From a virus, in IMG/VR virus record IMGVR_UViG_3300026457_000013, positions 1 through 64,000 of that record: 64,000 nucleotides of DNA. One strand, given 5' to 3'. The position numbers and the translations under genes were made by a program. Below the pieces are notes generated by a model. That model saw nothing but the letters and a program-made list of their open reading frames with translations, was not told where the DNA came from and made no database searches. Positions 1,396 to 27,187 of the stretch are shown piece by piece (position 1 is the first letter of the stretch; each line of letters opens with the position of its first letter).

Positions 1396-1458
1396 GTCGT
1401 TCTCTTAGTATTCTAGTATGACTACTAGGTGCACAAAGCTAGTAGTCATAGTGGAGTA

Positions 1459-1668: not shown

Positions 1669-1669
1669 T

Positions 1670-2323
1670 TTAAACCTGTGCCTGTCCTGTTATATGCCAA
1701 CTGTCGTTGAAAATTAGTGTTATTGATTCATATGGAGACTGTAACACGACCTCATCCCCATCATCTATCTTGTCGCCATTTTGTGTTACTATATAAATTT
1801 TTTTATTTCCAATTTGCTTTTGTTGTGCTTTGATTATAAGCATTTTGCCTAGTGGCGGATTTTGTGGTAAGTATATTTCTATACTTTTTTCGTTTAGTAC
1901 TCCTATGTAGCAGTCGTCTGGTTGGATATGGTAACTTTCACTAATAACTTTAGCTGGTAGTATGCAGCTCATTGTACCACTAGGGCCAGCTGGTCCTTGT
2001 GGACCTGCAACACCTTGTGGTCCTTGTGGACCTTCTACACCCTGCTCACCCTGCGGTCCTGGTGGGCCTTGTATGCCTGTGTCACCTTGCGGACCCATTG
2101 GTCCCTGCGGGCCTGCGTTACCTTGTGGGCCTTGTGCACCCTGCGGGCCTTGTGGGCCTGCAACACCTTGTGGTCCTTGTGGTCCTTCAGGGCCTGGTGG
2201 ACCTTGACCAGTACTGTTATTGATAATTACATCATTATCACTAGTAGTTTGTGGAATGTATACTGGAGTTGGTGGTGGAGCAAAATACCAGGGCGGTGGA
2301 AAGAAATATTGATTTTGATACAC
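1670..2323 (-). CDS. collagen-like protein with C-terminal globular domain
   Basis: ~25 G-X-Y triplets; GTG start at 2323 after GGAGG; Pro-rich N-terminus. Confidence 0.8.
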
Positions 2324-2384
2324 AATAACCTCCAATAAATGTGCCACTAGACTTTTGGTCTAGTGGCTAGCACAGTTTTAGAGA

Positions 2385-3146
2385 TTATCTAATGTTTGTG
2401 TTTGTATTGACGGGGTTAGCGGTTAATGTGCCGCTGCCAACGTTAATTGCTTCGTTATTTGATCTGATGTTTTGTGCAAGGCCCCAAATAGCATTGTAGA
2501 GCTGACCCCACTGCTGCTGTTGTTGCTGTTGCTGTTGCATCTGGTTGATGTTGTTGGTTGTGGTAACTTCAACGCCACGAGTAGCTGCACCTGTGTCTAG
2601 CTTAGCTTGTAGCGCAATAATAGCTGCGTTAGCGTCTGTAAGTTGACGGTTTAGGGTCGCCTCATACTGTTGTGTGATAAGAGCACGAGTTTTATCACCA
2701 TCGTTAGTAATGTCTTTACTAAGCTCATAGCGATTTTCCATAACCTGCTGTTGCAGTCCATTGAGTTGTTGTGCTAGCACCATTGTACCGGCATTAACAG
2801 CTTCTTTAACGCCGTCAGTGCGGGCAGCTAAACTACTAGCAACATTATTTAACTGAGTTGTAATGCCAAGTGTTTGTGTTGCTTGGCTAGCTTCCATAGC
2901 TGCTACACTAGTAGACACGCTTTTGTCAACTTGACCAATAGCTTGCATTAAGCTCATGTTAGCTTGATCTTGCTCTGGTGGGTTACGAAGTGCAGCAGCT
3001 GCAGCAGCTCCGCCGTCATTGCCAAATAGGTTACCGTTGTTACGTAACAGTGATCCTAGGATCAGGCCGCCAATAAGACCACCACCGCCAAATAGGCCGT
3101 CGCCGCCACTCATCATCATACCAGCTGGTGTAATACTTTCTGCCAT
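2385..3146 (-). CDS. coiled-coil protein with Gly-rich hydrophobic N-terminus and Q/N-rich C-terminus
   Basis: ATG at 3146 after AAGGAG; GGLIGGLILGSLL segment, heptad-like middle, poly-Q. Confidence 0.8.
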   Translation of the reverse strand: MAESITPAGMMMSGGDGLFGGGGLIGGLILGSLLRNNGNLFGNDGGAAAAAALRNPPEQDQANMSLMQAIGQVDKSVSTSVAAMEASQATQTLGITTQLNNVASSLAARTDGVKEAVNAGTMVLAQQLNGLQQQVMENRYELSKDITNDGDKTRALITQQYEATLNRQLTDANAAIIALQAKLDTGAATRGVEVTTTNNINQMQQQQQQQQQWGQLYNAIWGLAQNIRSNNEAINVGSGTLTANPVNTNTNIR

Positions 3147-3221
3147 TTGAAACTCCTTGTTGTTATAATTATAATGGAGATTTGGCATGTGTTACTGGCA
3201 GGTAACTCATGCCAGTAAAAG

Positions 3222-3485
3222 TTACTCGTAAGGAGTAACTTCAGTAGGTGGACAACTGTTTGGATTATTATGTTTTACACGTCGCATATCTTCCTGAGGA
3301 ATAATGCTATTGTACTGATTCATTGTCATTTTTACAGTATCACTGGCTAGCTCATGTATTCGCTCAGCCATAAAATGTAAATCTTCGTCAGTAGTAGGTT
3401 CCTCTCTGATATATTCAAACAGTCGTAATAATAGGGGAATACTGAGCATAGCAAAGCGCTGCTCAGTTTTATATAATTCGTGCAT
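3222..3485 (-). CDS. hypothetical protein
   Basis: 87-aa ORF with IPLLLRLFEY...DLHFMAE. Confidence 0.7.
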   Translation of the reverse strand: MHELYKTEQRFAMLSIPLLLRLFEYIREEPTTDEDLHFMAERIHELASDTVKMTMNQYNSIIPQEDMRRVKHNNPNSCPPTEVTPYE

Positions 3486-3527
3486 AGGTTACCTTTATTA
3501 TTTTTATTATTGAACCAAACTTATTTA

Positions 3528-3716
3528 TCAACTATAACCAGGATCTAGTTGATCTAATACATATTTATATATGCGTTTTCTTCCTTCGCTGGTATTCCAT
3601 AAATCATCTGGTATTTCACCATCAAATGCCTTATTAGGACTAGCCCACCAACGCTGTACTAATTCATCGCTGCCTAGTAATGCTTTTAGCATACGGTTTA
3701 CTTTATTTTCACTCAT
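3528..3716 (-). CDS. stand-alone Xre/MbcA/ParS-type antitoxin C-terminal-like domain (DUF2384-like)
   Basis: WWASPNKAFDGEIPDDL motif; start moved to 3716 because the longer ORF overlaps a tRNA. Confidence 0.6.
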   Translation of the reverse strand: MSENKVNRMLKALLGSDELVQRWWASPNKAFDGEIPDDLWNTSEGRKRIYKYVLDQLDPGYS

Positions 3717-3725
3717 TTTATTCCT

Positions 3726-3809
3726 TGGTGCCCTAGGGGAGACTCGAACTCCCACGCCTTTCAGCACTGGCTTCTAAGACCAGCGTGGCTACCATTACAC
3801 CACCAGGGC
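3726..3809 (-). tRNA. tRNA-Leu(UAG)
   Basis: long variable arm, loop CTTAGAA, GTTCGAGTC, CCA. Confidence 0.92.
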
Positions 3810-3813
3810 TATT

Positions 3814-3899
3814 TGGTAGGGAAGACCGGAGTCGAACCGGTACGCCGTTAGGCGATTGATTTTAAGTCAATTTGTGTCTACCTGTTTCACCACATCCCC
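3814..3899 (-). tRNA. tRNA-Leu(UAA)
   Basis: long variable arm, loop CTTAAAA, GTTCGACTC, CCA; one acceptor-stem mismatch. Confidence 0.88.
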
Positions 3900-3902
3900 A
3901 AA

Positions 3903-4118
3903 CTAGACTTCAATACTGCCACGATCGTGTATAATGTATACGCGATTATAGCTGCCGCGTAAATATTCAATATCACGAATACTACAATATGGTCCAGATT
4001 CAATACGAAAGTCTTTAACCGAACGCCAATCCTGAATAATTTCTTCACGGGTTTGCATCCACTTTCGCCAAGGAGCTGGTGTTAAGTATAGGTTGTCAAG
4101 TAGTTGTTGTACAGCCAT
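3903..4118 (-). CDS. hypothetical protein
   Basis: ATG at 4118 after AAGGA; sigma70-like promoter just upstream (~4146-4175). Confidence 0.7.
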   Translation of the reverse strand: MAVQQLLDNLYLTPAPWRKWMQTREEIIQDWRSVKDFRIESGPYCSIRDIEYLRGSYNRVYIIHDRGSIEV

Positions 4119-4213
4119 TTGCTTTCCTTTACTGAGTAAAATAATATTATACATCCTAAAGGAAAATAAATCAACTGTAAAAATTTTGTTGCGGAGCCTA
4201 AGCCCCGCAACAG

Positions 4214-4450
4214 TTATTTTGCTGCGTTGTTACCAACTACATAAGCCTCCATTGCTTTAGCTAAGTCAATAGCCTCTTGCGGAGTATATATTTGTGGCAT
4301 ATAAGTTGTATAGTTTTCTATGGGAACGCCTTGTTTAAGTTTATGCTCAAAAAATAGTTTTGCAAACTTTTTATGTGTGCGAAATTTTGTATCTAAGTAT
4401 TCCATTGCCTCTTCTAACAACTCCTCGCGTAATTCATGTATATCTGCCAT
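4214..4450 (-). CDS. hypothetical protein
   Basis: 78-aa ORF; resembles the 4631-4855 protein (ELRxxLL...A.EYLD..F, MPxxY). Confidence 0.7.
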   Translation of the reverse strand: MADIHELREELLEEAMEYLDTKFRTHKKFAKLFFEHKLKQGVPIENYTTYMPQIYTPQEAIDLAKAMEAYVVGNNAAK

Positions 4451-4630
4451 TGTAGCCCCTTTTTATTTTTATTGTCGGCTAAGTACTATGTCCAACTATT
4501 TTTATCGGTATGATAGTACCAAATTTTTTCTAAATATTCTACATCAGCCATAGTTTGTGGCTTGTGATCTTCTATAAAACGCTGTAACGAATAAGGCTGA
4601 TTAAAGTATTCTTGTATTCGTTGCCAAAGA

Positions 4631-4855
4631 TCACTTACTATTAACGAAACCATAGAGTTTTTTAGCGTGTTCAACAACATCTTCAAAAGTATACATTTTA
4701 GGAGCAAACTCCTGATACTTTTGCATAATGTCTTGGCCGTTTTTAGCCATTTCTTCAAAGGCTCGCTTAGTAAACTCTGTGTTAACTTCAAACTGCTTGT
4801 CTAGGTAGTCCTTGCTCATTGCTAATAGTTGAGCTCTGATCTCGAATGGATTCAT
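4631..4855 (-). CDS. conserved phage hypothetical protein
   Basis: MNPFEIRAQLLAMSKDYLD...AKKLYGFV; GGAG RBS. Confidence 0.75.
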   Translation of the reverse strand: MNPFEIRAQLLAMSKDYLDKQFEVNTEFTKRAFEEMAKNGQDIMQKYQEFAPKMYTFEDVVEHAKKLYGFVNSK

Positions 4856-5148
4856 GTTTATCTCCGTGTTGTGTGTTGTTCATTAATCGCTGAGCTTTAC
4901 GCCACTTACCACTACGTGTAAGTTGTGTAGCCCAAAGTGCTTTGCAGATTATAGTGTACCAACTCATTGCCAACCTCTATATGTTAAATAGCGTTTTGCT
5001 CTGGCTTGCCCACTCTTTTCTAACATAGTAAAAATGCGATTACACCAATAGCATACTTTTGCCATAGTAATCTCCGTGTGTTGTGTGCCAGTTTTGGCTA
5101 GACTGGCAACTAGTGTACCCTTAGGGTCTTAAGGATAATAGGGTACAG

Positions 5149-5331
5149 TTAATTTACATTTTTGCCGGTTTTTTCTTTCCTGGTTTTTTCATTGGTTTGT
5201 AGCTCATTTTTCTCATTCTCCCTAGCATGTATAGCTCGTTCAGCGGCTTCACAAGCACCTAGTGTATCAAACTGGCAATTGCCGCGTTTGCCATACTTAT
5301 ATTTACCATTTGCACATTTATAACAAGGCAT
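5149..5331 (-). CDS. small Cys-containing hypothetical protein
   Basis: 60-aa ORF coupled to upstream gene (TAATG). Confidence 0.6.
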   Translation of the reverse strand: MPCYKCANGKYKYGKRGNCQFDTLGACEAAERAIHARENEKNELQTNEKTRKEKTGKNVN

Positions 5332-5642
5332 TATAGTGGATCAATCTTAGTTAGGGTTTTTACTTTATGGCCTACAATAGTATCACTAGGTTTGTAGCCA
5401 TCGCCATCGCGTTGATATACACGTATTAATGCGCCTGGATCTTCTGGAGTGCCAGTAATCTTAAAGCTGCTACCAGGTATATCGGCTTCACCACTAGTAA
5501 TTATTCTGGTAATTTTACCGCGTGCTGTACCACCACTACTGTTCCAGCTAACGCTGTCACCACGTTTTACACTACCAGCTTTAGCCTTTTGTAGAGCATC
5601 AATCATGCTATTATAAAATTCTAGTTCGTAAATCTTATTCAT
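5331..5642 (-). CDS. Tudor-like (DUF2945/Hva1-like) protein
   Basis: GDSVSWNSSGGTARGKITRI...VGHK motif; GAGGAG RBS. Confidence 0.6.
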   Translation of the reverse strand: MNKIYELEFYNSMIDALQKAKAGSVKRGDSVSWNSSGGTARGKITRIITSGEADIPGSSFKITGTPEDPGALIRVYQRDGDGYKPSDTIVGHKVKTLTKIDPL

Positions 5643-5655
5643 AATAACTCCTCAA

Positions 5656-5839
5656 TATTGGGGTATTCTCTGTTTACTGCCTAGGCCGCTAAGCCCGTGC
5701 CCTAAACTTACATAACTTCATGACGGTTTGCCGTACTTTAGGGTCAGACACGCTTACTAGCTACTACTCCGGTCTTCACTAGTAAGAGACTCTGCAATGT
5801 TCCAGCTCATCTGGCTACGAGCAGAGAATACCCCAATAT
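5656..5839 (-). ncRNA. candidate structured RNA (184 nt)
   Basis: perfect 18-bp closing inverted repeat ATATTGGGGTATTCTCTG/CAGAGAATACCCCAATAT with internal stems; gene-free. Confidence 0.5.
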
Positions 5840-5862
5840 GGCCTAACACTAGGCCACGTTGG

Positions 5863-6873
5863 TTAACCTATGGTTTTTGCAAATTGTTGACTAGCAAGAT
5901 TCTTTTGCTTTGACTCGCACATAATGTCAGCCCAACTACTATGCGTAGCAGCCCATGAATTTACTCTGTTATTCCAGTAGTAGTCACTATGTGCTCGCAG
6001 TTTAGCTGATGTAAAACCCATGCCTGTAAGAGACTTGTAGTCGGGCAACTCATCTGCTGTGTGGTCGACAAGCACATCTTCTCTGGATACTGAATAGTGT
6101 ATAACAGGTCTAATACCTCGCCACGAATCTTTAACCACTCTAATTCGCTTGTCGTCAGGCTCAATGTACTCTCCCTTGCTGTATATCCAGTGATGATGTA
6201 TGTCTAGAACTAGGGCACAGTGTTCTACAAGTTCTAAACTATGCTCTAGACCCCAGGTATATTCTGCGTTTTCGATTGTTAATATGTTGCGTGCTTCTGG
6301 ACTTAACTTTCTAAGTGCTGCAATAATCCCTTGTGGACCACGTTTGCCTCCAATATGAACATTGCACTTAAAATCCTGAAATTTCCTACCATAGCCCATA
6401 TAACGGGCGACGTCAGTATGATACTCAAACTCAACAATACTATTATCAACAATTCCATCATTTTCACTCGCTAGTACACAAAATTGACCTGGGTGGAAGC
6501 TTAACCGTACATCTTTACCTCGTGCTATATCCCCTACTTTGCCTAGATGTGTTTCTAGGTATTTAACTACATCACTTTGAAAGTAGAACCACATCCAATC
6601 TTCATGTGTGTAAGCTGGAAATAAATCACTGCTAATGCGAAACTGACGCTGATCCCTAGGCAGGTTACCAACCCACTCTACCTGTCGCTTCAGTGTTTCA
6701 CAGTTGTGATGTATAATTGTCCAGATTTTTTCTACTGCTTTGTCCCTAGTTTGCTTGTTAAGATATGTTAGTGTTGTAGTAGTTGTATTTAGTTTTTTGT
6801 CGGCTTTGTCGTGATCTGTTTGAATCTTGCAAGCAAAGCCGATGCGTGGCTGTGTTATATCAAATGTGTGCAT
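5863..6873 (-). CDS. uvsE: UV damage endonuclease UvsE/UVDE
   Basis: RIGFAC, FRISSDLFP, RLSFHPGQF, LTIEN, LVLDIHHH, RAHSD and DIMCESK motifs. Confidence 0.93.
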   Translation of the reverse strand: MHTFDITQPRIGFACKIQTDHDKADKKLNTTTTTLTYLNKQTRDKAVEKIWTIIHHNCETLKRQVEWVGNLPRDQRQFRISSDLFPAYTHEDWMWFYFQSDVVKYLETHLGKVGDIARGKDVRLSFHPGQFCVLASENDGIVDNSIVEFEYHTDVARYMGYGRKFQDFKCNVHIGGKRGPQGIIAALRKLSPEARNILTIENAEYTWGLEHSLELVEHCALVLDIHHHWIYSKGEYIEPDDKRIRVVKDSWRGIRPVIHYSVSREDVLVDHTADELPDYKSLTGMGFTSAKLRAHSDYYWNNRVNSWAATHSSWADIMCESKQKNLASQQFAKTIG

Positions 6874-7084
6874 TTTATTGTGGCCACTTGTTAAGTGGAC
6901 AGTGATTAGTAATTCGTTTAGCGTAAATACTTATTATTTTTTCTGTTTGCTGACATATATCCATGATCTTGTTATAGCTGCTGCAAGTATCGCAGATTTT
7001 TGTTCTAACATCGTATAATGTTTCTTGATTTTGTTGTTGCATTTTATATTATAGCAATTTTCTTAAACTTTTTCAAGTGTTAAT

Positions 7085-7300
7085 TTATAGTCCTATTAAC
7101 CTTACACAAATGGGGCAAATAGGATTATCATCTAGGTCTGGTACTAGTTGTTTAGACCAAACGCCACAGTGCGTACACTGATCTATATGTTTACTGAGCT
7201 CTTGTACATCTAAACTGTCCATGTCTATGCCCAGGTCTTTGCAGACCTGGTATAGTGGTTTATGTGTTTTATTTAGATGTTTTGTTAGTATTTGATACAT
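7085..7300 (-). CDS. small zinc-ribbon protein
   Basis: CTHC...CPIC. Confidence 0.65.
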   Translation of the reverse strand: MYQILTKHLNKTHKPLYQVCKDLGIDMDSLDVQELSKHIDQCTHCGVWSKQLVPDLDDNPICPICVRLIGL

Positions 7301-7922
7301 CTACTTTATATCTATCGTCCAATTCAGGATGAGTTTTTTCAAATTCTAGTAAGAACATAATGCAGCAAGCGGCATGTGCAAGATGGCTTAGTCCACTTTC
7401 AGGATCCTTATCTTCACCATCGTTAAAGGCCATAATATGTCGCATAGCTGCGGCTAGTGGCCTTGACCAAACAAAGCCGTCGCGCCAATTGTGCGCGTGA
7501 TATTTATCAGCACCAAACTTTAACACTGCTGCTGTTTGATTTAGTGCTTCTGTACTCAATAGGTTAACAGGTAGCTTGTCACTATCAAACTTCAGGGCAC
7601 TACCAGTACCACTAGCAGTGCCGCCGGCACTACCACTACCGGTAATCGTACTATTAGTAAAGGTAATCTTACGCCAATCAAAAGGAATATTTTGTGGATT
7701 AGGATCGGTGTTTAGGTTAATGGTGTGTTGTGCACCCCAACCATCAAGTTTAATAACGTCTTCTTGATTAAGTGGTAAAATGTTTGTAGTTTCTAGTGTA
7801 GGTATAACACCCTCATAACCTGGATGATATGGTGCTTCTGCAACTAATTGTTTATAATCTGCATTATCTGCACTAGGCAGTTGTGGCTCTTTGTCAGTTG
7901 TGTAAATTTCGTATTTAGGCAT
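7269..7922 (-). CDS. dATP/dGTP diphosphohydrolase domain protein (DUF5664-like)
   Basis: KFDSDK, FGADKYHAHNWRDG, AAMRH and DPESGLSHLAHAAC motifs. Confidence 0.85.
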   Translation of the reverse strand: MPKYEIYTTDKEPQLPSADNADYKQLVAEAPYHPGYEGVIPTLETTNILPLNQEDVIKLDGWGAQHTINLNTDPNPQNIPFDWRKITFTNSTITGSGSAGGTASGTGSALKFDSDKLPVNLLSTEALNQTAAVLKFGADKYHAHNWRDGFVWSRPLAAAMRHIMAFNDGEDKDPESGLSHLAHAACCIMFLLEFEKTHPELDDRYKVDVSNTNKTSK

Positions 7923-10007: not shown

Positions 10008-10682
10008 ATGAACACAGCACATATTTGGTGGGCAACACCAGACATAGACAAAAATATAGCGCAAATTGCGCGTGTAAGTAATCCTAGCAACCAAATGAAC
10101 CAAGAATATCGCGGACTATTACAGTATATGATTAGGGAAGGCCATGTTAGTCCATTTGAAATGGTTAATGTTTGCATGGAAATTAATACAACACGCGATA
10201 TTGCTCGCCAAATACTACGCCATAGGTCGTTTAGTTTTCAAGAGTTTTCGCAACGCTATCAAACGGTTGAAGCGTTGGGTGCGCTAGATATATCACGCGA
10301 ACCAAGGCTGCAAGATAAAAAGAATCGCCAAAACAGCATACCACTAAACTACCTACAAGATAAAGATCGCATACTAGGGTCACAGTGGGAATATAGATTA
10401 AAAACTATAGCTGAGGATGCACAGCGACACTACGACTGGGCTATTAGTGCTGGTATTGCTAAAGAACAAGCCCGCGCAATCTTACCAGAAGGATTAACAC
10501 CTAGCCGTATGTATATGAATGGTACACTACGAAGTTGGATATTTTACTTAAAACAGCGACTAGACCCTAGCACTCAAAAGGAGCATAGGCTAGTAGCTAA
10601 ATGTGCATACAATGAGCTTTGTCATGTTGCACCTATTACAATGGAGGCTATGTTTGGAACCCAAGACAAGCTGGACACTTAG
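10008..10682 (+). CDS. thyX: flavin-dependent thymidylate synthase
   Basis: GHVSPFE, RHRSFSFQEFSQRY, KEQARAILP, TQKEHR. Confidence 0.95.
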   Translation: MNTAHIWWATPDIDKNIAQIARVSNPSNQMNQEYRGLLQYMIREGHVSPFEMVNVCMEINTTRDIARQILRHRSFSFQEFSQRYQTVEALGALDISREPRLQDKKNRQNSIPLNYLQDKDRILGSQWEYRLKTIAEDAQRHYDWAISAGIAKEQARAILPEGLTPSRMYMNGTLRSWIFYLKQRLDPSTQKEHRLVAKCAYNELCHVAPITMEAMFGTQDKLDT

Positions 10683-15200: not shown

Positions 15201-15384
15201 TAGATATGTTATAGTAGAAAGCGCAAGCATTGACCGGCTAGTCTTAGAGGTCAATGCATTATTACGTGCAGGTTGGATACCACAAGGCGGTGCGGCTAAA
15301 AATGAAACGCACTATATTCAAGCAATGATTAAACTGGAGAAACATGAAGCGGTTGTTAACACTCATCACAGCACTAACTATTAG
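15193..15384 (+). CDS. DUF1737-like small protein
   Basis: VNALLRAGWIPQGG...YIQAMIK. Confidence 0.6.
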   Translation: MISRYVIVESASIDRLVLEVNALLRAGWIPQGGAAKNETHYIQAMIKLEKHEAVVNTHHSTNY

Positions 15385-16354
15385 TGCCACAGCACAAGCA
15401 GCAGACATTACTGGAGCAGGTGCAACATTTCCTTACCCTATTTATGCTAAATGGGCAGAGGCCTACCATAAACAAACTGGTGTTGGTTTAAACTATCAAA
15501 GCATTGGTAGTAGTGGCGGTATTCGTCAGATTAATTCAAAGACAGTAACATTTGGTGCTACAGATGCTCCGGTTAAGGGTGAGGACTTAGATAAAAATGG
15601 TCAAGTTCAGTTTCCAGCAATTATTGGTGGCACTGTACCTGTAGTCAATCTTGAGGGATTTAAGCCCAATGAACTAAGAATAACAGGTTCAGTACTTGCT
15701 GAAGTATATATGGGTATAGTCACCAAGTGGAATGATCAAAAGTTGCTGGCACTAAATCCTGGTAAAAAGTTACCAGATCAAACAATTACTGTAGTGCATC
15801 GTGCTGATGGATCGGGCACTACTTTTAACTTTACAGACTATCTTAGCAGTGTTAGCCAGGAATGGTCAACTAAAATAGGTAAAGGTGCTGCTGTTAAGTG
15901 GATTCCACAAACTGCTGTAGGCGGCAAAGGTAATGAAGGGGTAGCAGCTAATGTTACTAGAATTAAGGGTTCTATTGGCTATGTAGAGTATGCATACGTT
16001 AAAAAGAATAACATGACTAGCTTGCAACTGCAAAATAAAGCAGGTAACTGGATTAGTCCAGATGATGCAAACTTTGCAGCTGCCGCACTAGCGGCGGATT
16101 GGTTTAGTGTACCTGGTATGGGGTTGAGCATTGTTAATCAAGCTCATAAAGATGCCTGGCCAATTTCTACTGCTAGTTTTATTGTAATGTACAAGGAACC
16201 ACAGGATAAACGGGCTAGTCAAGAAGTCGTCAAGTTTTTTGACTGGGCATTTAAAAACGGTGCAAAACTAAGTGCAGAACTTGACTATGTACACCTGCCA
16301 GACAAATTGCAGCAGGATATTCGTCAACGAGTTTGGTCACAGTTTAAACACTAG
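15344..16354 (+). CDS. pstS: phosphate ABC transporter substrate-binding protein PstS
   Basis: signal peptide, ITGAGATFP, NYQSIGSSGG, FGATDAP, HRADGSGTT, IGYVEY. Confidence 0.96.
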   Translation: MKRLLTLITALTISATAQAADITGAGATFPYPIYAKWAEAYHKQTGVGLNYQSIGSSGGIRQINSKTVTFGATDAPVKGEDLDKNGQVQFPAIIGGTVPVVNLEGFKPNELRITGSVLAEVYMGIVTKWNDQKLLALNPGKKLPDQTITVVHRADGSGTTFNFTDYLSSVSQEWSTKIGKGAAVKWIPQTAVGGKGNEGVAANVTRIKGSIGYVEYAYVKKNNMTSLQLQNKAGNWISPDDANFAAAALAADWFSVPGMGLSIVNQAHKDAWPISTASFIVMYKEPQDKRASQEVVKFFDWAFKNGAKLSAELDYVHLPDKLQQDIRQRVWSQFKH

Positions 16355-18543: not shown

Positions 18544-19107
18544 ATGGCCAATTGTTGGCTTATCAGTGACATGCATTTTGGTCATGCTAATATTATAAAA
18601 TTTACCAGGCACGACGGCACTTGGCTGCGTCCCTTTAGTAGTGTTGAAGAGATGGACGAATACATGATCGACAACTGGAACAGTGTTGTCAATAGTAAAG
18701 ACCGTGTATACATGCTAGGTGATGTAGTTATCAATCGTAAAAACCTACATGTGTTGGGCAGACTTAGCGGACGTAAGGTGTTGATCAAAGGCAATCACGA
18801 TATTTTTCCTGCTGAAGAATACCTCAATTACGTAGATGATGTTCGTGGTTATCATGTACTTGACGGTATGCTGTTGAGTCATATACCAGTACATCCAGAT
18901 AGCCTACAGCGATTTGGCTGTAATATTCACGGACACCTACACTATCGTGAGGTTGTACTAGCAGGTGATAAAGTTGACCCTAGATATTTTAACGTAAGTG
19001 TAGAACGTGTTGACTATACTCCAATCAGCTTTGAAGAATGTAAGCGTATAATTAAATTTCGTGGTGGTCATGTAGGCTTCCACGAACACGGTGAAAGGGC
19101 AATGTAG
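18544..19107 (+). CDS. calcineurin-like metallophosphoesterase
   Basis: SDMHFGH, LGD, GNHD, SHIP, HGHLH. Confidence 0.9.
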   Translation: MANCWLISDMHFGHANIIKFTRHDGTWLRPFSSVEEMDEYMIDNWNSVVNSKDRVYMLGDVVINRKNLHVLGRLSGRKVLIKGNHDIFPAEEYLNYVDDVRGYHVLDGMLLSHIPVHPDSLQRFGCNIHGHLHYREVVLAGDKVDPRYFNVSVERVDYTPISFEECKRIIKFRGGHVGFHEHGERAM

Positions 19108-19376
19108 TGGCATATTATATCAGAGACGGTGAATTAGTACCTGTAGCTATTCCATTAAATCAACGTGTTAAGATTGGCAAGTACTACGAACCACCACAAC
19201 TAAGCTATCTTAGCAATGACCAGCTGTGGATACAAGATGTTTATGTGTTCAAGCAAATTCCCTGGTATATGATTAAAAATCGCTATGAACGTTACCTACT
19301 ATACGCTACCTTATACGGTGCTATAGTAGTAATGCTAACCATGATTGGCCGATATTGGCTAGGAGCACCCAATTGA
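19107..19376 (+). CDS. hypothetical membrane-anchored protein
   Basis: C-terminal hydrophobic helix. Confidence 0.6.
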   Translation: MAYYIRDGELVPVAIPLNQRVKIGKYYEPPQLSYLSNDQLWIQDVYVFKQIPWYMIKNRYERYLLYATLYGAIVVMLTMIGRYWLGAPN

Positions 19377-19556
19377 ACAAACAATTAGTAGAAACTTATC
19401 GTCGCCGGAGTTTTGCTAGGTTTATGAAGAATGAAACCAACTATGAACTCCTAGTGCAACTTGTAGTTGAAGATTGCCTGGCAATTATAGAAGCTAATAA
19501 GTCACCTAATAAAGTGGCAATGACCAATAAGATTAAACAACACTTTGGAATCAGTC

Positions 19557-19721
19557 ATGGAACAGAAGTATGAAACTATCGAGGTTGAGTTAACTGACGA
19601 AGAATTTTTACAAATAGCAAAACTTGCACACGATCTAGACGTTACCTTTAACAAAATGGTAGAGCGTATTCTGTGGGATGAAATTAATAAACAAGGCGAT
19701 CTTTTTAGTGGAGATGCGTAG
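19557..19721 (+). CDS. small RHH-like protein
   Basis: IEVELTDEEFLQIAKLAHDLDVTFNKMVERIL; below the ORF-track length cutoff. Confidence 0.55.
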   Translation: MEQKYETIEVELTDEEFLQIAKLAHDLDVTFNKMVERILWDEINKQGDLFSGDA

Positions 19722-20029
19722 TGGATCAAGAGATTATTGACGCAATTAACAGTGCTCTTAAACCAAATCAACAACCACAAACACCCACAAAATTGTCGCC
19801 AAGATTTAAGGCACTGGCTAGGGAATGTGGCTTTGTATTTTGGAATAGTGAACCACACGGCCCTGGGCCTGGACATATTGACTGGAGCTGTGATTATACT
19901 AGTGAGTTTGAACACTATAGCCGTGAACTTGTAATCTGGACTTGTGAACTAATGCGGCAGGAGATTGTACGCGACTACTTGTTTAGATCAAGTGAAAATA
20001 CATATAAGCACCTAGTAGTTCAAGATTAA
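19721..20029 (+). CDS. hypothetical protein
   Basis: LARECGFVFW...IDWSCDY motif. Confidence 0.65.
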   Translation: MDQEIIDAINSALKPNQQPQTPTKLSPRFKALARECGFVFWNSEPHGPGPGHIDWSCDYTSEFEHYSRELVIWTCELMRQEIVRDYLFRSSENTYKHLVVQD

Positions 20030-20077
20030 AAATTTTATCTTGAACTTGTAGCCCAAACCTTGCTATAATATTATTAT

Positions 20078-20790
20078 AGTCAGTGAGGAAAGTAAAGCCT
20101 GACAAGGCCCACAGCTTTAAATGACATTTTGCCACGCTTAGTAAATATTTTATCTTATACAAAATGTGCATTGTAGCGACCACTGACTGTACTTGGCAGT
20201 ATCCTAATGGCTAATAATCTACAGGAGAAATCAACGATAAAAAATCTTAGTTGCTTCCAACAACTAAGCGCGATATAGCCAGCGTTAGGGGCTTTAGGTT
20301 AGTTGCCAAACCTCCCACTGGGCAGACATCCAGGTTTAGGGTAAAACGGTAACGGAGTCTACCTTACTCCGACTAAGGTATGGACAGAGTAACAGCTCAA
20401 GCTAGGGCCATGTGGAAGTGGTGGCTAGCCAAATCCTCTGATGATTCATTGCGATATGATGAAACCCTAAACCCACAAGGTTGACGCTGTGGCCTTCAAT
20501 TGCCGCACCTGCCGCGGTTTAGGGTAAGGATAATAAGGCCCGATAAGCTTGCTGTCACATTCCCTAGTGGCTAGCGGCCAATGTCGAGGCGGGTGAGAGT
20601 CCCGTCAACTAAAATATGTGAGTGATGGTGGACTACGCATAAGGTTATTTGAGACCTGCGGACTGTCGTCCAATAGTAACAAGACAATATGATCCAGTTT
20701 AGGGACTGGTATCATATTCAAGCACACTGGTCGCCTCGTCAAGTGTGTTTGAATATGATTTTTCTTTGGCAGCCACTTGGCTGCCGTTTT
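20078..20790 (+). ncRNA. promoter-driven block of structured non-coding RNAs (~700 nt)
   Basis: TTGAAC...TATAAT at 20040-20069; no credible ORF; successive closed stems; terminal hairpin GGCAGCCACTTGGCTGCC-TTTTT. Confidence 0.65.
20433..20531 (+). ncRNA. hammerhead ribozyme (type I)
   Basis: ATCCT-CTGATGA-(T TCAT tgcgat ATGA T)-GAAA-CCCTAAACC...GGTTTAGGG-TA-AGGAT; stems I and III pair; GUA cleavage after 20526. Confidence 0.72.
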
Positions 20791-20804
20791 TGTCTGGAGA
20801 ACAA

Positions 20805-21047
20805 ATGTATACATGTAAAGTTGTTAACAGCTTAACTAGTGCCGTTGTTGATGAGTTTGAGGTTGACTATCTTTACGAAGCTAGACTAAAGTTTAGCAGG
20901 TGGCATGCAGATGCAGACCCAACACAATACGATTGTCACGTCTACGACGAGTTTGGCGATGCCATAGACTTTACCAGCGATATTGATAGTAGTGTGTACG
21001 AGCCTAGTGAGTACGATGAGTGGATGAGTTATGACCCAGATTGTTAA
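20805..21047 (+). CDS. acidic hypothetical protein
   Basis: ATG after GGAG; ends EPSEYDEWMSYDPDC. Confidence 0.7.
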   Translation: MYTCKVVNSLTSAVVDEFEVDYLYEARLKFSRWHADADPTQYDCHVYDEFGDAIDFTSDIDSSVYEPSEYDEWMSYDPDC

Positions 21048-21285
21048 ACTTGCCAAAGAGCACGGTGCTACACACAAGGCAAACCTAGGTGTTTATCAGT
21101 TCTATGAATATGAATGGGTCAACTATAATAATGCCCTAGTTGAAGTAGCGCTAGAGGCATTACAAGACTTACGCGGATATTCGGGCGTTGGCGCCGACGG
21201 CAATCCACTGTGCACCCACAGTTGGAACAGTGCACTGCTTGCAGCTGAACAGCTTATCAAGGAGCGCATCCTTGGCACTGTATAA
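21031..21285 (+). CDS. hypothetical protein
   Basis: 84-aa ORF in operon. Confidence 0.55.
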   Translation: MTQIVKLAKEHGATHKANLGVYQFYEYEWVNYNNALVEVALEALQDLRGYSGVGADGNPLCTHSWNSALLAAEQLIKERILGTV

Positions 21286-21556
21286 ACACTTATGCCCAGA
21301 CTGGGACTTCCTAGAAATAGACGATGAGTGTGAGGAGTTTAATACTTGTACATGCAAGATAGATAGTAGTGGTCAAACAGCTAAATTTACCGCTGGCACT
21401 AAAGTACTAGTACTGCCAAATCAAATGCAGGCTACTGTTATCAAACAGCACCTAAGCTATGACGGGCCTGAGAGTTTTTGGGGCAATGTACTAGTAGAGT
21501 ATAACGATGGTATTCGTGGTACTTGCAATAATTGGCAACTAAAATACATAGAGTAA
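21188..21556 (+). CDS. hypothetical protein (true start probably later)
   Basis: CPDWDFLEID and SYDGPESFWGNV motifs. Confidence 0.5.
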   Translation: MAPTAIHCAPTVGTVHCLQLNSLSRSASLALYKHLCPDWDFLEIDDECEEFNTCTCKIDSSGQTAKFTAGTKVLVLPNQMQATVIKQHLSYDGPESFWGNVLVEYNDGIRGTCNNWQLKYIE

Positions 21557-21714
21557 AACATGGATCATGACAACCACGGCTACAAGCGCACTATAATTTT
21601 TGTGTTACTGTTACTCTCACTCGTATTAGCCATGTTATTCGGCTAAACGGAAAATATTCTCTTGAAGTGCCGGCCTAACCAGTGTATAATATTTATATAA
21701 TGTGAGGAGCGACA

Positions 21715-21915
21715 ATGACTATTGAAGTGTATACACGTAAGGCTAAATTTGCCGAACTTAGTGCATATTGCCTTCACGCTAGTGATGGTGATTTTATGGA
21801 GGTATGTGAGTGGAGTAATGGTGAAGGGTTTGATGTTACCATCAACAACCGTACCCTGCAGTTCACATATGGCCAGTGGGACTGTTTACGAGTTTTGGTA
21901 AATTATAAAGACTAG
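21715..21915 (+). CDS. hypothetical protein
   Basis: EVCEWSNGEGFDV; own promoter and GAGGAG RBS. Confidence 0.75.
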   Translation: MTIEVYTRKAKFAELSAYCLHASDGDFMEVCEWSNGEGFDVTINNRTLQFTYGQWDCLRVLVNYKD

Positions 21916-22076
21916 AAATATTCACTTGATTTGTTGGTCAGAAGTCTGTATAATATTATTTATCGGTTAGAGAACAATCGCCAGAGAGTACAACCAACTA
22001 ATATTCGGGCTAAGCTATGACTTAGCAGCGGTACTCCCTCTAACCCTAGACAAATAGCAAATTACAAGGAGCACCT

Positions 22077-22370
22077 ATGCGATTCAAGTATACTGCAAAG
22101 AAGCCTAGCCGAGATCAGCTTGCTGGCATGAGTGCTAGCCAATTTAAGACCATGTTAAAGCGTAAGGGTTTTAAGGTTGATCGTGACTTCTTTAAGATAG
22201 GTGCAATGGCTAAGCGTGGTAACAGACTGTATCGCTTTCGTTACTGGGCATACCCTGATTTCTTTGTAGACATTAGCTGCCCTCTCGATGAATTTGATCG
22301 TTGGGCTAATAGTGTGGACAGTACCATTAACTTCTACAACTTCATCGAAACACAAACACTAAAGCAGTAA
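22077..22370 (+). CDS. basic hypothetical protein
   Basis: AAGGAG RBS; promoter at ~21926-21954 with structured leader. Confidence 0.7.
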   Translation: MRFKYTAKKPSRDQLAGMSASQFKTMLKRKGFKVDRDFFKIGAMAKRGNRLYRFRYWAYPDFFVDISCPLDEFDRWANSVDSTINFYNFIETQTLKQ

Positions 22371-22414
22371 AAATATTCACTTGAAGTTTATGTTCCCACA
22401 GTGTATAATATTAT

Positions 22415-23455
22415 TATTGAGTGACAAGTTTAGGGCGAACCAGGGCCAACATTAATCTGTTGGATAAGTTCTTAATCTGTGTTGAAAACACCCTTAACAC
22501 AGACCCCACGAATGGCAGATGGTCGTTGTTAAATGTGGATACTAAAAATATCCGCTCCTGAAAGGTGCAAATCCTAAAAGTATAGTCGGGCGAGAAGGCC
22601 GGGCAATCCAAGGAGATCAACCAAGGGCTATATGCAGAGTGCCAGGTAAAAACAACATTGACCAACCAACCTATTTGTATAATCACCGGCTTGATCCCAT
22701 GCAACTGGTGGTTATACAAATGTGTTGAAATCTGTGGCCAACGTGCTTGCGTAGCTAACCTGCTGCGGAACGGACGCACATGGTGGAAGCTGCAACCACC
22801 CTAAAGGAACCAGCCCCCTAGTTTGTCAATAGTTATAGGGGTTAACCAAAAGACCTGTTACCGTAGCATATACGTAGTTATGCGTTATCTAACACGAGAG
22901 TTAGAAACCAGTGGAGCCGATTCTGCGAAAGCATGGCGGCCACCCACTACATGCCAGTAGCTCAAACGTGCTCAGAGCAAAGGTGTGCTAGAAATAAGCC
23001 CTCTAGCCTGGCCAACAATTCAAACACAGTGCAGAGTGAACATTAGCCTATAGCTAGCTGCCAGCAACTAAAAACAGTGCGTTGCTAAGGTTTGAAACCG
23101 ATCCAGTTTAGGGTCGGGGTTTAGCAGTAACCTAAAACTGCTTGTGCCCTAAGGGGCCAATGCGCCAACAATAAATGGCAAGGCTATAACCACAGTGCCT
23201 GGTTAGTCGCGTTCTTATAATTGTTAATAGCCCTCAACGCAGGGTAATCTAGGTGCAAATCCTAGACGCGCTAGTTGCCCATCTTGGCTGGAACCCAAGA
23301 CCTAAAGCAACTAAGAACAGCAAATGTTCGTGGCATCAACTACACCGACTTACGACGACTCGCAATCGTCTAGAGTGTAGACAAAGATGAATGGTGGTCG
23401 TAGTAGCACTACATAAAAGTAATCCACCCCATTAAACCAAAAACAGCGCAGTTCA
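22415..23455 (+). ncRNA. very large structured ncRNA region (~1 kb), GOLLD/ROOL-like candidate
   Basis: promoter TTGAAG...TATAAT at 22381-22409, terminator at 23455-23479, no credible ORF, many hairpins, embedded tRNA-like element at ~23207-23271. Confidence 0.65.
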
Positions 23456-23479
23456 AAAGCCCGCCTTGTGCGGGCTTTT
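23455..23479 (+). terminator. rho-independent terminator
   Basis: AAAAGCCCGC-CTTGT-GCGGGCTTTT. Confidence 0.85.
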
Positions 23480-23502
23480 GTTTATCTAAAAGGCTATAAA
23501 AC

Positions 23503-23715
23503 ATGTCTCAAGAATTAACCAACCAGCAACTAAAAGACCTTAACGACGATGTCCAAGAATTCATCGACAAGCTAAGGATACACTACAACGACGATACCCT
23601 AGCCATTGCAGCAGCACTAACGCAGTGGGGGCTAAGGCTTTACAAGAGTGAGCTGAGCACACCAGAATTCTACCAACTATTAGTCTACACAATTGAAACT
23701 AACCGCTTCCTCTGA
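23503..23715 (+). CDS. hypothetical protein
   Basis: 70-aa ORF. Confidence 0.65.
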   Translation: MSQELTNQQLKDLNDDVQEFIDKLRIHYNDDTLAIAAALTQWGLRLYKSELSTPEFYQLLVYTIETNRFL

Positions 23716-24039
23716 CCCTAAACCTCAACAACCCTCACTAAAAAATTCACTTGTTTTTGCTTATGCAAATGTGATATAATTTATTATAAATTGAAAAAAT
23801 TTAGAATTAGCAGCTGTACAGTGCAACTAGTACAAAACTCTGGGGGGTGTCCTGGCAAGGGGGGATCCAGGGGGCTTTGTGCTAGGTAGCTCGCAACCGG
23901 TACAAGGCTAGCTAATTCTAGAGATTTAGGGTCAAATCTCGAACCTTAAAAAGAGCAAATATAAAAATTAAAGCAAATTTTCCCACCCCCCAAAAGTGCT
24001 CCAGCCCTAGCAAAACCACAACTAACCAAACAAGCTAAA

Positions 24040-24789
24040 ATGTATATTAGACAGCAAGATATAAAAACCTTAGAACTGGATCACCTAGCCAATCAAGCTA
24101 CTGAATCAATTGAAACCTGGGTAAAAGACAACAATCTTTGCAACCATGCTAGCTGGCTACTACCACAGCTGGTAAATTGGTTTGGCAGCTGGCAACTCTA
24201 CAATGACGGTAAAACTACTGTAGCCAAAAATTGCACCAATAATTGGGCTCGTGCCATTTATAGGATTAGTCGTGTAAAGCGTAGCTTGCTCATTAGAACA
24301 CAAACTAAACTGCCACAGTATGGGCAGCTAACTCCACTCCTTATGTTAGGATTTAAGCGCTATCAAGGTTATAGCTATGAACAATTTCGTGAAATCGAGG
24401 GCTTAGAGTGGTTGCTGGAACCTGATTTATATGAATCACTAGTAAATATAGAGCCTATAGACCTTAGCCAAAACAGACTACTAGCTATACGCACTCAAGG
24501 GTTAATTACAAAAAGCGGATCAAAAACTGGTGAGCTTAAAAATCCAGAGAGTACTTGGTCACTAACAGGTATCAAGGACACTGAATTAGGCAACTACCCT
24601 AAACTTGTGCAAACTATGGTTTGTCAAATTTGGCTAGCACATCCCAAGCATCGTAACAGTGACATGATCTTAGACCCTAATAATTGGGATGCAATGCCTA
24701 AACCATTAATAGATGATACAAGCGGCATTGTTAGTGTATCCAAGGAATCGACCAAGGTGCTAACACGCGAGATATTGCCATGGGACTAA
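24040..24789 (+). CDS. T5-like conserved early hypothetical protein
   Basis: SWLLPQL and YGQLTPLLM..FK resemble, from memory, an early protein flanking the T5 terminal repeat. Confidence 0.6.
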   Translation: MYIRQQDIKTLELDHLANQATESIETWVKDNNLCNHASWLLPQLVNWFGSWQLYNDGKTTVAKNCTNNWARAIYRISRVKRSLLIRTQTKLPQYGQLTPLLMLGFKRYQGYSYEQFREIEGLEWLLEPDLYESLVNIEPIDLSQNRLLAIRTQGLITKSGSKTGELKNPESTWSLTGIKDTELGNYPKLVQTMVCQIWLAHPKHRNSDMILDPNNWDAMPKPLIDDTSGIVSVSKESTKVLTREILPWD

Positions 24790-24849
24790 TTATAGTTGAT
24801 AGTTTAGTTACTAACAATTTTAATAATATAACGATTTAGGGTCAAAATT

Positions 24850-25161
24850 ATGAAATACAACAAGGAACTAACTGACAAGATTGTGGAGCAGTATAAAAGT
24901 GGTCAAACCGCTAAACAAATAGCAGAAGGTCTTGGCGTCGCTGACCGTAGCATAATTGCCAAGCTGAGCAGTTTGGGTGTCTACCAAAAAAAGACGTATG
25001 TCAACAAACGTGGTGAGGTGCCCATCAAGAAGTACGAGATGATCGAACGATTGGCCGAATTGTTGGAGGTGCCAAGCGATCAGCTGGAGAGTTTGGAAAA
25101 AGTCAACAAAAACGTACTTAAATTGCTTGAAAACCGCTTATCTGACCCTAAACCGCAATAA
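24850..25161 (+). CDS. T5 A2/D3-like DNA-binding protein (paralogue 2)
   Basis: IVEQYKSG...RSIIAKLSSLGVY...ESLEKVN. Confidence 0.7.
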   Translation: MKYNKELTDKIVEQYKSGQTAKQIAEGLGVADRSIIAKLSSLGVYQKKTYVNKRGEVPIKKYEMIERLAELLEVPSDQLESLEKVNKNVLKLLENRLSDPKPQ

Positions 25162-25192
25162 TCGTCGATAATCCAGCTAAATTCTAGCCAAT

Positions 25193-25219
25193 AAGCCCTG
25201 CCTTGTGCAGGGCTTTTTT
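25193..25219 (+). terminator. rho-independent terminator
   Basis: AAGCCCTGC-CTTGT-GCAGGGCTTTTTT; same loop as at 23455. Confidence 0.85.
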
Positions 25220-25798
25220 ATTGTGTGACATAGTGGGTTTCTGCGGTTTAGGGTCAGAATTATTTACTTGACTTGGGTCAGGGATTTGCACTATAATGTT
25301 GGCGCAGACCCCCAAGATTTTGCACTTGTGGAGTTTTGGCACTGGCGCAAGCTCAAAGTTTAGCACTTGAGTTTTTGCACTGGCGCAGCACCACTGGTGG
25401 TGTGCTAAGTTCTAGAACGTATAATGTTATGGACCCTAAACCGTTATGGTTTATATAATTTAGCATGGTTACAGAAATTGGTACGTTATAGAAACTAACC
25501 GACCAGCGGCGGCTTAGGGTCGACAAACGGTGGCATTTTCGCTTGACACCCACGCAAATTTTATGGTAAAATTTGGCGCCATATCGTTATAAATTATATA
25601 AATCATAACCTGGCCAATCGACCCGACCAGTGGCAGTTAGCGGCTGATGAACGGCAGGAAAAACGCTTGACACCCGCGCAATTATACTAGTATAATTGGC
25701 GCCACCGCTATAAAAAATATAGCGGTGCAAATTCTATATTTTATAACCGTTATGTGAAAAATAACGGCCCGCTCGGGGCCGTTATGGTTTTTAGAATC

Positions 25799-26113
25799 CT
25801 AGTCTACCAAATCCATTTCCAGCATGTTATCAATTATATAACCTGGAAGCTTGGTAGTTTCGCAATTCATATAACGCTCTAGGGCTAAGAACTCGCCAAT
25901 CTTGCGATCAAACTTGTCATTATCAGCGCACCAAGCAAAGCTAACGTCATAAAATTTAGCATGACGCGCATTGTGCGCACAAGGCATGGCCACAAGAGCG
26001 AATCCGTTTTCATCACCCATAGGTGCGCGAGTGTGGACAATTCCGCCAGATTCTAGAACGTAGGCAAGCAAGTCCTTACGAATGATTTTTTGGTTTTTGG
26101 TCATTTTTTCCAT
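25799..26113 (-). CDS. hypothetical protein
   Basis: AWCADNDKFDRKIGEFLALER; AAGGA RBS. Confidence 0.7.
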   Translation of the reverse strand: MEKMTKNQKIIRKDLLAYVLESGGIVHTRAPMGDENGFALVAMPCAHNARHAKFYDVSFAWCADNDKFDRKIGEFLALERYMNCETTKLPGYIIDNMLEMDLVD

Positions 26114-26168
26114 AACAGTAGTTCCTTTTAGAGTTTAGAACGGAACGGGTTTTGGCCCGTTCCAGTTT

Positions 26169-26495
26169 TTACAGCGGTTTGCTGTTAGCTAAAGCATCGA
26201 AAATCGCTTTAAGAGCCGACTTGTTAGCCTTAGTTAGCGATTCTATATCGTTTTCCGATAGGCGAAGAATCGCGCCGATTGCATCGGCCGTTACATCTTT
26301 TTTAACGGGCTTTTCGCCAGTTTTTGTAACGTACTGTTTTGCAACATAAACTTTCTCGCGCGAAAGTTTCGCTACAATCGAACGAACGGTTTTACCCATA
26401 GCCGAAGCAATATCTTCGACCTTGACGCCCGCCTGATAGTCCGCTATAATTTTAGCGGTTTGCTCGGCGGTATAGTTAACGGCTTTTTCTGCCAT
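26169..26495 (-). CDS. T5 A2/D3-like DNA-binding protein (paralogue 3)
   Basis: ATG at 26495 after AGGAG; MGKTVRSIVAKLSREKVYVAK. Confidence 0.75.
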   Translation of the reverse strand: MAEKAVNYTAEQTAKIIADYQAGVKVEDIASAMGKTVRSIVAKLSREKVYVAKQYVTKTGEKPVKKDVTADAIGAILRLSENDIESLTKANKSALKAIFDALANSKPL

Positions 26496-26797
26496 TGCTA
26501 TAGCTCCTAGAACTGTTGCAGTTTCGACCCCATGTCCCCTGCAACAGAACCCATTATACACCTATCTGCCTGGCAGATTGTCGCCCTAGCGACAATTGGC
26601 CTACCATTCATCAGGTGGATCAGCGGCAACCCCACCCGACCAGCGGCAGACTGCATCCGACGAACGGCACCCCGCAGGGCTTGACACGCAGGCAAAAATT
26701 ATGATATAATTATATCATAATTTTGGCGCCATCGCTCTAAATTCTATAACTTAGAGCGATATAATAAAAAATATAGCGGCTTGTGCCGCTATATTTT

Positions 26798-27187
26798 TTA
26801 TAACGTCCTCACAATTGGTTCGTTTTTATTTATATAATATTCATGGGTTGCGCTTGGTGGCAAGCCATACTCTAGCATCATGCGCCGCCAATCAGGGCCA
26901 TGCCAAAAGTCTGTGGGGTCTTCGCCATTAATTATATAATCTGCAACATGGATTAGCTCATGCGGTACAATAACGCAAAGCATCTCGGCTTTATAACGGT
27001 TAAAAAACTTGCTAGCAAATTCTACCTCATGCACCTCGCAGTGTGCGAGGCCCGCAGTGCGATACATGCGATTGCTAATTCTAACTTTTGGAACGCTATG
27101 CGTTTTTAGTTCTGGCCACAATTCTTGCATAGCAGTCCAGTGTAGGGTAACAGCGGCTGTTACAACTTTTATCAACGAATCGGCCAT
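26798..27187 (-). CDS. SprT-like zinc metalloprotease
   Basis: RTAGLA, PHELIH, HGPDWR. Confidence 0.85.
   Translation of the reverse strand: MADSLIKVVTAAVTLHWTAMQELWPELKTHSVPKVRISNRMYRTAGLAHCEVHEVEFASKFFNRYKAEMLCVIVPHELIHVADYIINGEDPTDFWHGPDWRRMMLEYGLPPSATHEYYINKNEPIVRTL

Follow-up and report, generated by a model that had tools for sequence, protein, structure and literature searches.

The species 1 and species 2 RNAs of phage T4 are stable RNAs of about 100-140 nt that belong to the phage tRNA cluster and are made from tRNA-type transcription units. GOLLD, found in phages and prophages, is an ornate non-coding RNA that exceeds 800 nt; its 3' region is universally conserved and its 5' region less so, and it occurs in genomes that carry tRNA genes, sometimes with a tRNA embedded in it (PMC12286853). 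It is often located next to tRNA genes. ROOL (Rumen-Originating, Ornate, Large) is a large structured phage or prophage RNA for which two reports give an average length of 581 nt, high expression and no known protein partner (PMC12286853, PMC5737381). Both GOLLD and ROOL have recently been found to form RNA-only assemblies (PMC12286853), which are homo-oligomeric nanocages.

The locus described here adds to this kind of large ornate phage non-coding RNA, as judged by its own promoter and terminator, the absence of an ORF, covarying structure and transcription; the family is new, being neither GOLLD nor ROOL. It lies in the window, the whole stretch of 64 kb that was analyzed, taken from the start of an IMG/VR virus record that is 82 kb long and about 78% complete. 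The window encodes terminase, portal, capsid/protease, major tail and tape-measure proteins, with the terminase nearest (47-48% identity) to those of T5-like Vibrio phages of about 113 kb. The source is a T5-like phage from river water. ARAGORN finds 11 tRNAs and a tmRNA in the window (Table 1); a tRNA-Thr call at 553-627 (-) overlaps the end of the tmRNA gene. The RNA begins 8.6 kb downstream of the end of the tRNA cluster at 13816. The immediate surroundings of the RNA gene contain strong early-type promoters and small ORFs, and comparison of the neighboring ORFs with Pfam and PHROGs gave nothing informative.

A preliminary description made from the sequence alone had proposed a transcript of about 1 kb bracketed by its own promoter and terminator and lacking a credible ORF. 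Both signals are found, and no ORF is conserved. The promoter is of the ATTCACTTG...TGTATAAT type, as are neighboring promoters at 21920 and 23745; relatives conserve both hexamers and the adjoining ATTATTATTG, with a variable spacer. The terminator corresponds to helix 48 of the refolded structure (see below) and includes 2 compensatory pairs. A single internal promoter-like site, at 22558-22586, is weak, unconserved and confined to optional module A, and no internal terminator was found inside the unit. The strand is assigned as + because conserved G-U pairs, for example U-G in 15 of 15 sequences at columns 671/703 and 672/702 of alignment A1, suit that strand only.

Table 1. Positions of the RNA unit, its domains and nearby features in the window
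Feature	Position	Strand	Basis or remark
Permuted (two-piece type) tmRNA	217-609	-	tag ANDEVFALAA
ThyX	10008-10682	+	auxiliary gene
PstS-like periplasmic phosphate-binding protein	15344-16354	+	PBP_like_2, 8e-35
Promoter of second unit	20040-20069	+	TTGAAC-18-TATAAT with TG
Terminator of second unit	20767-20786	+	in the 20040-20795 unit
Sigma-70-type promoter	22381-22409	+	-35 TTGAAG, 17-nt spacer, -10 TATAAT with GTG before
RNA, about 1,068 nt	22416-23483	+	5' end inferred from -10 box, 3' end from terminator
5' domain	22437-22503	+	hairpin 22437-22471, 10-bp hairpin 22476-22503
Optional module A, 154 nt	22509-22662	+	contains first AGGTGCAAATCCT copy, 22563-22575
Long, nearly invariant hairpin	22666-22728	+	TTTGTATAA arm; 16 pairs and variable tip; helices 5-8
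GUGUUGAAAUCUG...GCGGAACGGA module	22729-22800	+	alignment of relatives
Most conserved core (model R1)	22801-22951	+	hairpin 22884-22908, bulged hairpin 22910-22948
Optional module	22952-23012	+	reduced to 2-3 nt in L049, L055, L056
Optional module	23022-23095	+	absent in L036, L038, L040
GUUUAGGGUC	23106-23115	+	conserved in sequences covering the position
3' domain	23137-23430	+	covarying hairpins and junctions, helices 30-47; in 15 of 15 sequences reaching the region
tRNA-shaped four-way junction, 66 nt	23206-23271	+	helices 35-38
Acceptor-like stem, 5-6 bp	23206-23212/23266-23271	+	covariation
D-like stem, 3 bp	23216-23218/23227-23229	+	covariation
Anticodon-like stem, 4 bp, 4-6-nt loop	23230-23233/23242-23245	+	covariation
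T-like stem, 5 bp, 7-nt loop UGCAAAU	23249-23253/23261-23265	+	covariation
Intrinsic terminator and T-run	23454-23487 (stem to 23480)	+	11-bp stem, 7 G-C, loop 5

Relatives of the RNA were collected in two ways. Searches with the flanking proteins returned 33 and 6 IMG/VR loci, with a blastn match to the RNA only in those of 5 contigs; exact 20-22-nt probes from invariant stretches added 1 more IMG/VR contig and 11 metagenome contigs, and two extra IMG/VR probe scans recovered the same 6 contigs. After removal of duplicates (L003, L004 and L039, identical to L040 over the RNA; L042-L047 and L059-L070, re-fetches), alignment A1 holds 17 sequences, the window and 16 relatives (6 IMG/VR contigs, 11 metagenome contigs). 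The window's sequence is one of eleven that are full length, at 847 (L038, the shortest natural version), 906, 913, 943, 962, 967, 977, 1029, 1041, 1068 and 1152 nt, and the other six are cut by contig ends. All relatives are close, with about 80-100% identity over shared parts. Exact probes recovered most of these members, which makes the seeming invariance of the probe regions a circular result.

The searches suggest that only a small clade of T5-like freshwater phages carries the family, since neither the other upstream-ORF loci nor whole records of distant relatives match the RNA. No blastn match was obtained in 31 of the 33 upstream-ORF loci (L005-L035), where tightly packed small ORFs are found instead, and a covariance model of the core (R1, 153 positions) found no match in these loci or in five whole records of distant upstream-ORF relatives. 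Run over 35 sources totaling 346 kb, the same model recovered the window alone (184 bits), a weakly informative result given that these sources are fragments. A 'distant' blastn search of 22370-23500 against 50,697 phage records gave no match, nor did a scan of bacterial and archaeal genomes with a first 20-mer. A second 20-mer gave one hit, 23 identical nt within the ORF of a 320-aa membrane protein in a Sphingobacterium, which was taken as chance because 596 Gb should contain about one 20-mer match at random. The family may also have more divergent members.

Comparison of the relatives reveals a modular architecture. The order of the conserved domains is fixed in all 11 full-length sequences: the 5' domain (22416-22507), the long hairpin, the GUGUUGAAAUCUG module, the core, the 3' domain and the terminator. 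Blocks between them come or go as whole units. Conservation extends over the first 92 nt of the RNA, with the variable modules in its middle part. Within the 5' domain, the inner stem 22446-22451/22458-22463 shows A-U/C-G covariation (8:5). Optional module A occurs in 3 of the 15 sequences covering its position (the window, L053 and the cut 5' end of L036) and is unremarkable when folded alone (z -0.88). The preliminary description had pointed to a hairpin, TTTGTATAAT.../...ATTATACAAA, that is now borne out as 22670-22686 with 22708-22724, 16 pairs that are 100% paired in 15 sequences. The invariance of the core stretch 22858-22877 is partly circular, as it served as a search probe; for the same reason, that of the palindromic UACGUA at 22870-22875 is uninformative. 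Four additional sites have inserts of 28-117 nt in other relatives. In L051:845-1873 (-), the GUGUUGAAAUCUG...GGAACGGA module is tandemly duplicated, and L036, L046, L050 and L054 have a related GUGUUGAUGCCC... insert of 69-105 nt just before the GUGUUGAAAUCUG module. The tandem copy and the related inserts at one site suggest that modules arise by local duplication and divergence.

Covariation among the relatives, to which the preliminary description had looked as a check, is far above controls on the 17-sequence alignment. RNAalifold predicts 174 pairs, of which 39 show compensatory double changes; 98.4% of cells are paired compared with 32-39% in slid-partner controls, and double changes appear at 1-8 pairs in those controls. 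None of 500 column shuffles, which ignore phylogeny, reaches the observed value on four of five measures, and 59 of 500 do so on the remaining one, 'further pair types'. A refold limited to well-occupied columns yields 245 pairs in 48 helices, with 96.6% of cells paired (33-41% in slid controls), 48 double-change pairs (4-10 in slid controls) and 0 of 500 shuffles reaching these values. The clearest cases are hairpin 22884-22908, where six of six central pairs covary through four sequence variants, and hairpins 23282-23300 (five of six pairs) and 23354-23370 (four of four). Many covariations separate the sequences into two haplotypes (8:6 or 8:7), so that few events, or swaps of modules, may underlie them.

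Thermodynamic folding points the same way for the 3' 761 nt (22723-23483), with z = -3.59 and 0 of 20 shuffles equally stable. Almost all supported helices are local. An all-against-all column search of the alignment for a long-range covarying helix or pseudoknot was noisy and gave no convincing candidate, and inspection by eye revealed no self-complementary covarying loops that might form kissing contacts. Given the locality of the supported helices and the lack of a robust long-range one, any single global fold would be hypothetical.

The most distinctive part of the 3' domain is the junction at 23206-23271, which presents four arms in tRNA order. Each of helices 35-38 contains at least one compensatory pair: U-A/G-C (13:2), A-U/G-C (8:6), G-U/U-G (8:6) with C-G/A-U (13:1), and G-C/C-G (8:7). 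As in tRNA, the 5-bp T-like stem is closed by a G-C pair and directly abuts the acceptor-like stem. U at loop position 1 and A at position 5 are the signature of a T-loop, and all variants of the T-like loop (UGCAAAU, UGAAAAC and UUAAAGC) retain both. Several features depart from tRNA. The acceptor-like stem has 5-6 bp instead of 7, the anticodon-like arm has 4 bp and a 4-6-nt loop instead of a 5-bp stem and 7-nt loop, and the junction has neither a free 3' end nor CCA, its acceptor-like 3' strand continuing into the next helix. ARAGORN called no tRNA within 22415-23479 when run over the window, and the Rfam tRNA model gave no hit on 22300-24100 at E<=10. Folded alone, the junction is not exceptional (z -1.72). 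The element is a tRNA-shaped module and not a tRNA; the embedded tRNA-like element of the preliminary description therefore survives as a covarying cloverleaf-shaped junction, whereas its tRNA character fails with ARAGORN, with the Rfam tRNA model and for want of a 7-nt anticodon loop. The two T-loop-like motifs noted earlier fare in a similarly mixed manner. The 13-mer AGGTGCAAATCCT has exactly two copies in the 64-kb window, at 22563 and 23251 (0.14 expected at <=1 mismatch). The second is a supported hairpin, but the first lacks structural support and lies in a module carried by 3 of 15 sequences.

Evidence for transcription comes from river samples. The runs comprise 14 riverine DNA and 6 riverine metatranscriptome sets from 2018-19 and one habitat, selected for containing the stretch 22000-24100; they may derive from a single campaign and may include the source of the window. 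DNA runs contain 90-96% of the sampled words of this stretch and RNA runs 43-60%, the RNA unit making up 51% of it. Four RNA runs were compared over 19000-27000 by summed contig word depth per bin, a poor measure of expression, with a single value for each contig and related strains added together, that cannot be used to rank genes. Across the four runs, depth is 1,132-7,499 in bins 22738-23538 and 8-167 in bins 20869-22470; past the terminator it is 0-8.8 in bin 23539-23805 in all four and 0-96 in the following 2 kb. The unit is represented in RNA libraries far above its neighbors, an excess not attributable to DNA carry-over, and the signal ends with the terminator. Expression, whose absence the preliminary description had counted against the transcript, is thus seen as high contig depth in river metatranscriptomes. 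The 5' third (22416-22737) has a depth of 28-302, 10-100 times below the rest of the RNA; either 5' processing or an effect of assembly may account for this, and the stable RNA is possibly shorter than the transcript first made. Contigs bridging 23012 to 23106, corresponding to the L036-type replacement of 23013-23105, reach a depth of 836-1,128 in all four RNA runs, indicating that several module variants are co-expressed. One contig in one RNA run ends at 23437 and continues as adapter.

Comparison with known families gave no match. A cmscan of the whole window with Rfam 15 at gathering scores returned the tmRNA and tRNAs only. On 22300-24100 at E<=10, the hits are weak and driven by the terminator (Trp/Leu leaders, sRNAs) or the long hairpin (miRNA models), all far below gathering scores, and the loci of eight relatives at E<=1 gave the same noise only. 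We take the GOLLD, ROOL, OLE and intron models to be part of Rfam 15. With that assumption, the GOLLD model has no hit at the gathering score in the window, at E<=10 on 22300-24100 or at E<=1 in the eight relatives; the ROOL model has none in the same scans; and the models of group I/II introns, RNase P, OLE, HEARO, tmRNA and 6S do not match the RNA unit. The novelty of the RNA stands after these scans. The 224 motifs of one published survey are presumably Rfam entries and hence within the scope of cmscan. A literature search found no description of this RNA, with the supplementary lists of those 224 motifs (PMC5737381) covered only through cmscan.

The RNA has a possible companion. A second large non-coding unit, unrelated in sequence, occupies 20040-20795 (+), 1.6 kb upstream. 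It is about 720 nt long and has no + strand ORF of >34 aa before its last 110 nt. It is 80-83% identical in L040/L003 and L038, which add a module of about 220 nt. Compensatory changes occur at 17 of 243 predicted pairs among 3 sequences only, Rfam gives no hit, and RNA contig depth reaches 2,633 in bin 20068-20334. Downstream of the main RNA, a third promoter of the ATTCACTTG...TGATATAAT type, in the region 23745-24039 (+), is followed by a 250-nt ORF-free leader and a 249-aa ORF at 24040. The leader has G-runs at 23852-23876 and a matching C-run at 23985-23994, is 78% conserved in L002 and recognizable in L049, and may be a structured 5' UTR.

The same region is rich in copies of the 10-mer GTTTAGGGTC. 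With both strands counted and <=1 mismatch, it has 23 sites in the window compared with 3.4 expected, and 0 of 100 shuffles have as many. Thirteen of the 23 sites fall in 20334-25521, and the copy at 23106 in the RNA is conserved among relatives. Each of five minus-strand sites has a plus-strand partner 50-250 nt further on (20463/20517, 23714/23924, 24595/24834, 25144/25246 and 25432/25512), and these inverted pairs surround promoters, terminators or leaders. The sites could be protein-binding sites, long-range RNA stems or the ends of small mobile cassettes.

Several explanations have been considered for the RNA. The one that we favor, and regard as probable, is that the locus is a stand-alone gene for a large, highly structured, modular non-coding phage RNA of a new family that accumulates and acts in trans. 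The earlier suggestion of a new giant RNA agrees well with the promoter-to-terminator unit, the lack of a conserved ORF, the strong covariation, the modular relatives and the high representation in RNA libraries. Phage tRNA operons with accompanying stable RNAs provide the model for a different view, in which the primary transcript would join independent small RNA modules end to end and be cut into several stable RNAs, with the tRNA-shaped junction as the processing signal. The locality of the helices, the independent gain, loss and duplication of modules among relatives, the low contig depth of the 5' third relative to the 3' two-thirds and the contig ending at 23437 before adapter sequence are all compatible with such cutting. 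On the other hand, the unit lacks an internal terminator and its one promoter-like site is weak and unconserved, RNA contigs span module boundaries in all four runs (as from 23012 to 23106), and the core domain order is the same in 11 of 11 full-length sequences; we regard this view as the main alternative, plausible but less likely. That the RNA is an exceptionally long structured 5' leader governing read-through into the 70-aa ORF at 23503-23715 is highly improbable. That ORF does begin 16 nt past the terminator T-run with no promoter between, and the RNA, small ORF, second promoter and 249-aa ORF follow in the same order in L049 and others. Yet the terminator pairs perfectly over 11 bp of G+C-rich stem before its T-run and has been conserved through compensatory changes, and depth drops from thousands to <=9 just past it in four of four RNA runs. 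We know of no precedent for a 1-kb module-swapping leader of a 70-aa protein.

Two further explanations concern what kind of sequence this is. The preliminary description had entertained a divergent member of the GOLLD or ROOL families, and an RNA beyond the reach of narrow Rfam models would share with them large ornate structure, a tRNA-bearing phage genome and conserved and variable regions (PMC12286853, PMC5737381). This proposal is now scarcely credible: neither the window stretch (E<=10) nor the eight relatives (E<=1) match either model, the length lies off the 581 nt average of ROOL, no tRNA is adjacent and no pseudoknots are detected. Practically no credence is given to decayed protein-coding or junk DNA with incidental hairpins, despite a 121-aa minus-strand ORF and several ORFs of 45-83 aa. 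The minus-strand ORF (22414-22779) crosses the module at 22509-22662, which is missing from 12 of the 15 sequences covering the position, and + strand ORFs inside the unit are all <=48 aa. In the RNAs of relatives, the longest ORFs are <=83 aa and differ in position and length, and L058 is without any of >=40 aa. The sole recurrent + frame spans 15-83 aa; of 46 columns at each codon position, 15, 22 and 17 are variable, and the frame's changes are exactly compensatory hairpin swaps. The lack of codon-position bias and of conservation in ORF length or position, compensatory pairing well beyond controls and the high depth in RNA libraries all speak against this explanation, which the covariation refutes.

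If the locus is a stand-alone RNA gene, host RNA polymerase would transcribe it early in infection, and the RNA would accumulate as a stable species and act in trans. The conserved core and 3' domain would then form the working fold, with the swappable hairpin modules peripheral. A bolder proposal, which we put forward tentatively and with some doubt, is that the whole 0.85-1.15-kb transcript is one functional giant RNA, its core perhaps self-assembling like GOLLD and ROOL and its periphery made up of modules and the tRNA mimic, and that it is paired with the upstream RNA as takeover or counter-defense machinery. As part of this same tentative proposal, the upstream unit would be a second structured RNA of 0.72-0.94 kb from the same early region. 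By analogy with tRNA, the junction might also let the RNA engage a factor that recognizes the tRNA elbow or acceptor, a suggestion that we rate as speculative and on balance improbable. Candidate partners would include RNase P, a tRNA-modifying or tRNA-cleaving defense enzyme and the ribosome, and the junction, in which the T-arm stacks on an acceptor-like stem and no anticodon is present, could serve as a processing signal or decoy. The suggestion fits with the 11 tRNAs and tmRNA that the phage also encodes. According to one report, T5-family phages use tRNAs against tRNA-cleaving defenses (PMC11555353).

To our knowledge, RNAs of this size and degree of structure are rare in nature outside rRNA, introns, GOLLD, ROOL and OLE. 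The RNA is an independent new example with a defined promoter and terminator that is very abundant in natural RNA samples, and its narrow distribution, in one clade of uncultured freshwater phages, is its weakness as a subject. The 11 full-length variants amount to a natural 'deletion series' showing which modules are dispensable, and the covarying tRNA-shaped junction points to testable partners. These properties make the RNA a target for cryo-EM and SHAPE and a candidate RNA-based takeover or counter-defense factor of T5-like phages. Should the proposed pair of giant RNAs prove true, it would rank among the largest non-ribosomal structured RNA classes in phages or bacteria.

The known RNAs thus resemble the river-phage RNA in part. 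Compared with the 581 nt average for ROOL, it is longer, at 847-1152 nt, and by covariation it is mostly a chain of local domains with no supported pseudoknot or long-range helix. With GOLLD it shares the nature of a large ornate phage RNA with conserved and variable parts in a tRNA-bearing genome (PMC12286853). The variable modules of the river-phage RNA are interspersed, however, and not, as in GOLLD, limited to the 5' half; the nearest tRNA gene is 8.6 kb away, and the embedded element is tRNA-shaped and not a tRNA. The T4 species 1 and 2 RNAs are likewise phage-encoded, abundant and stable and are tRNA-like or tRNA-associated. They lie inside a tRNA cluster, whereas a separate promoter and terminator delimit the 1-kb river-phage RNA.
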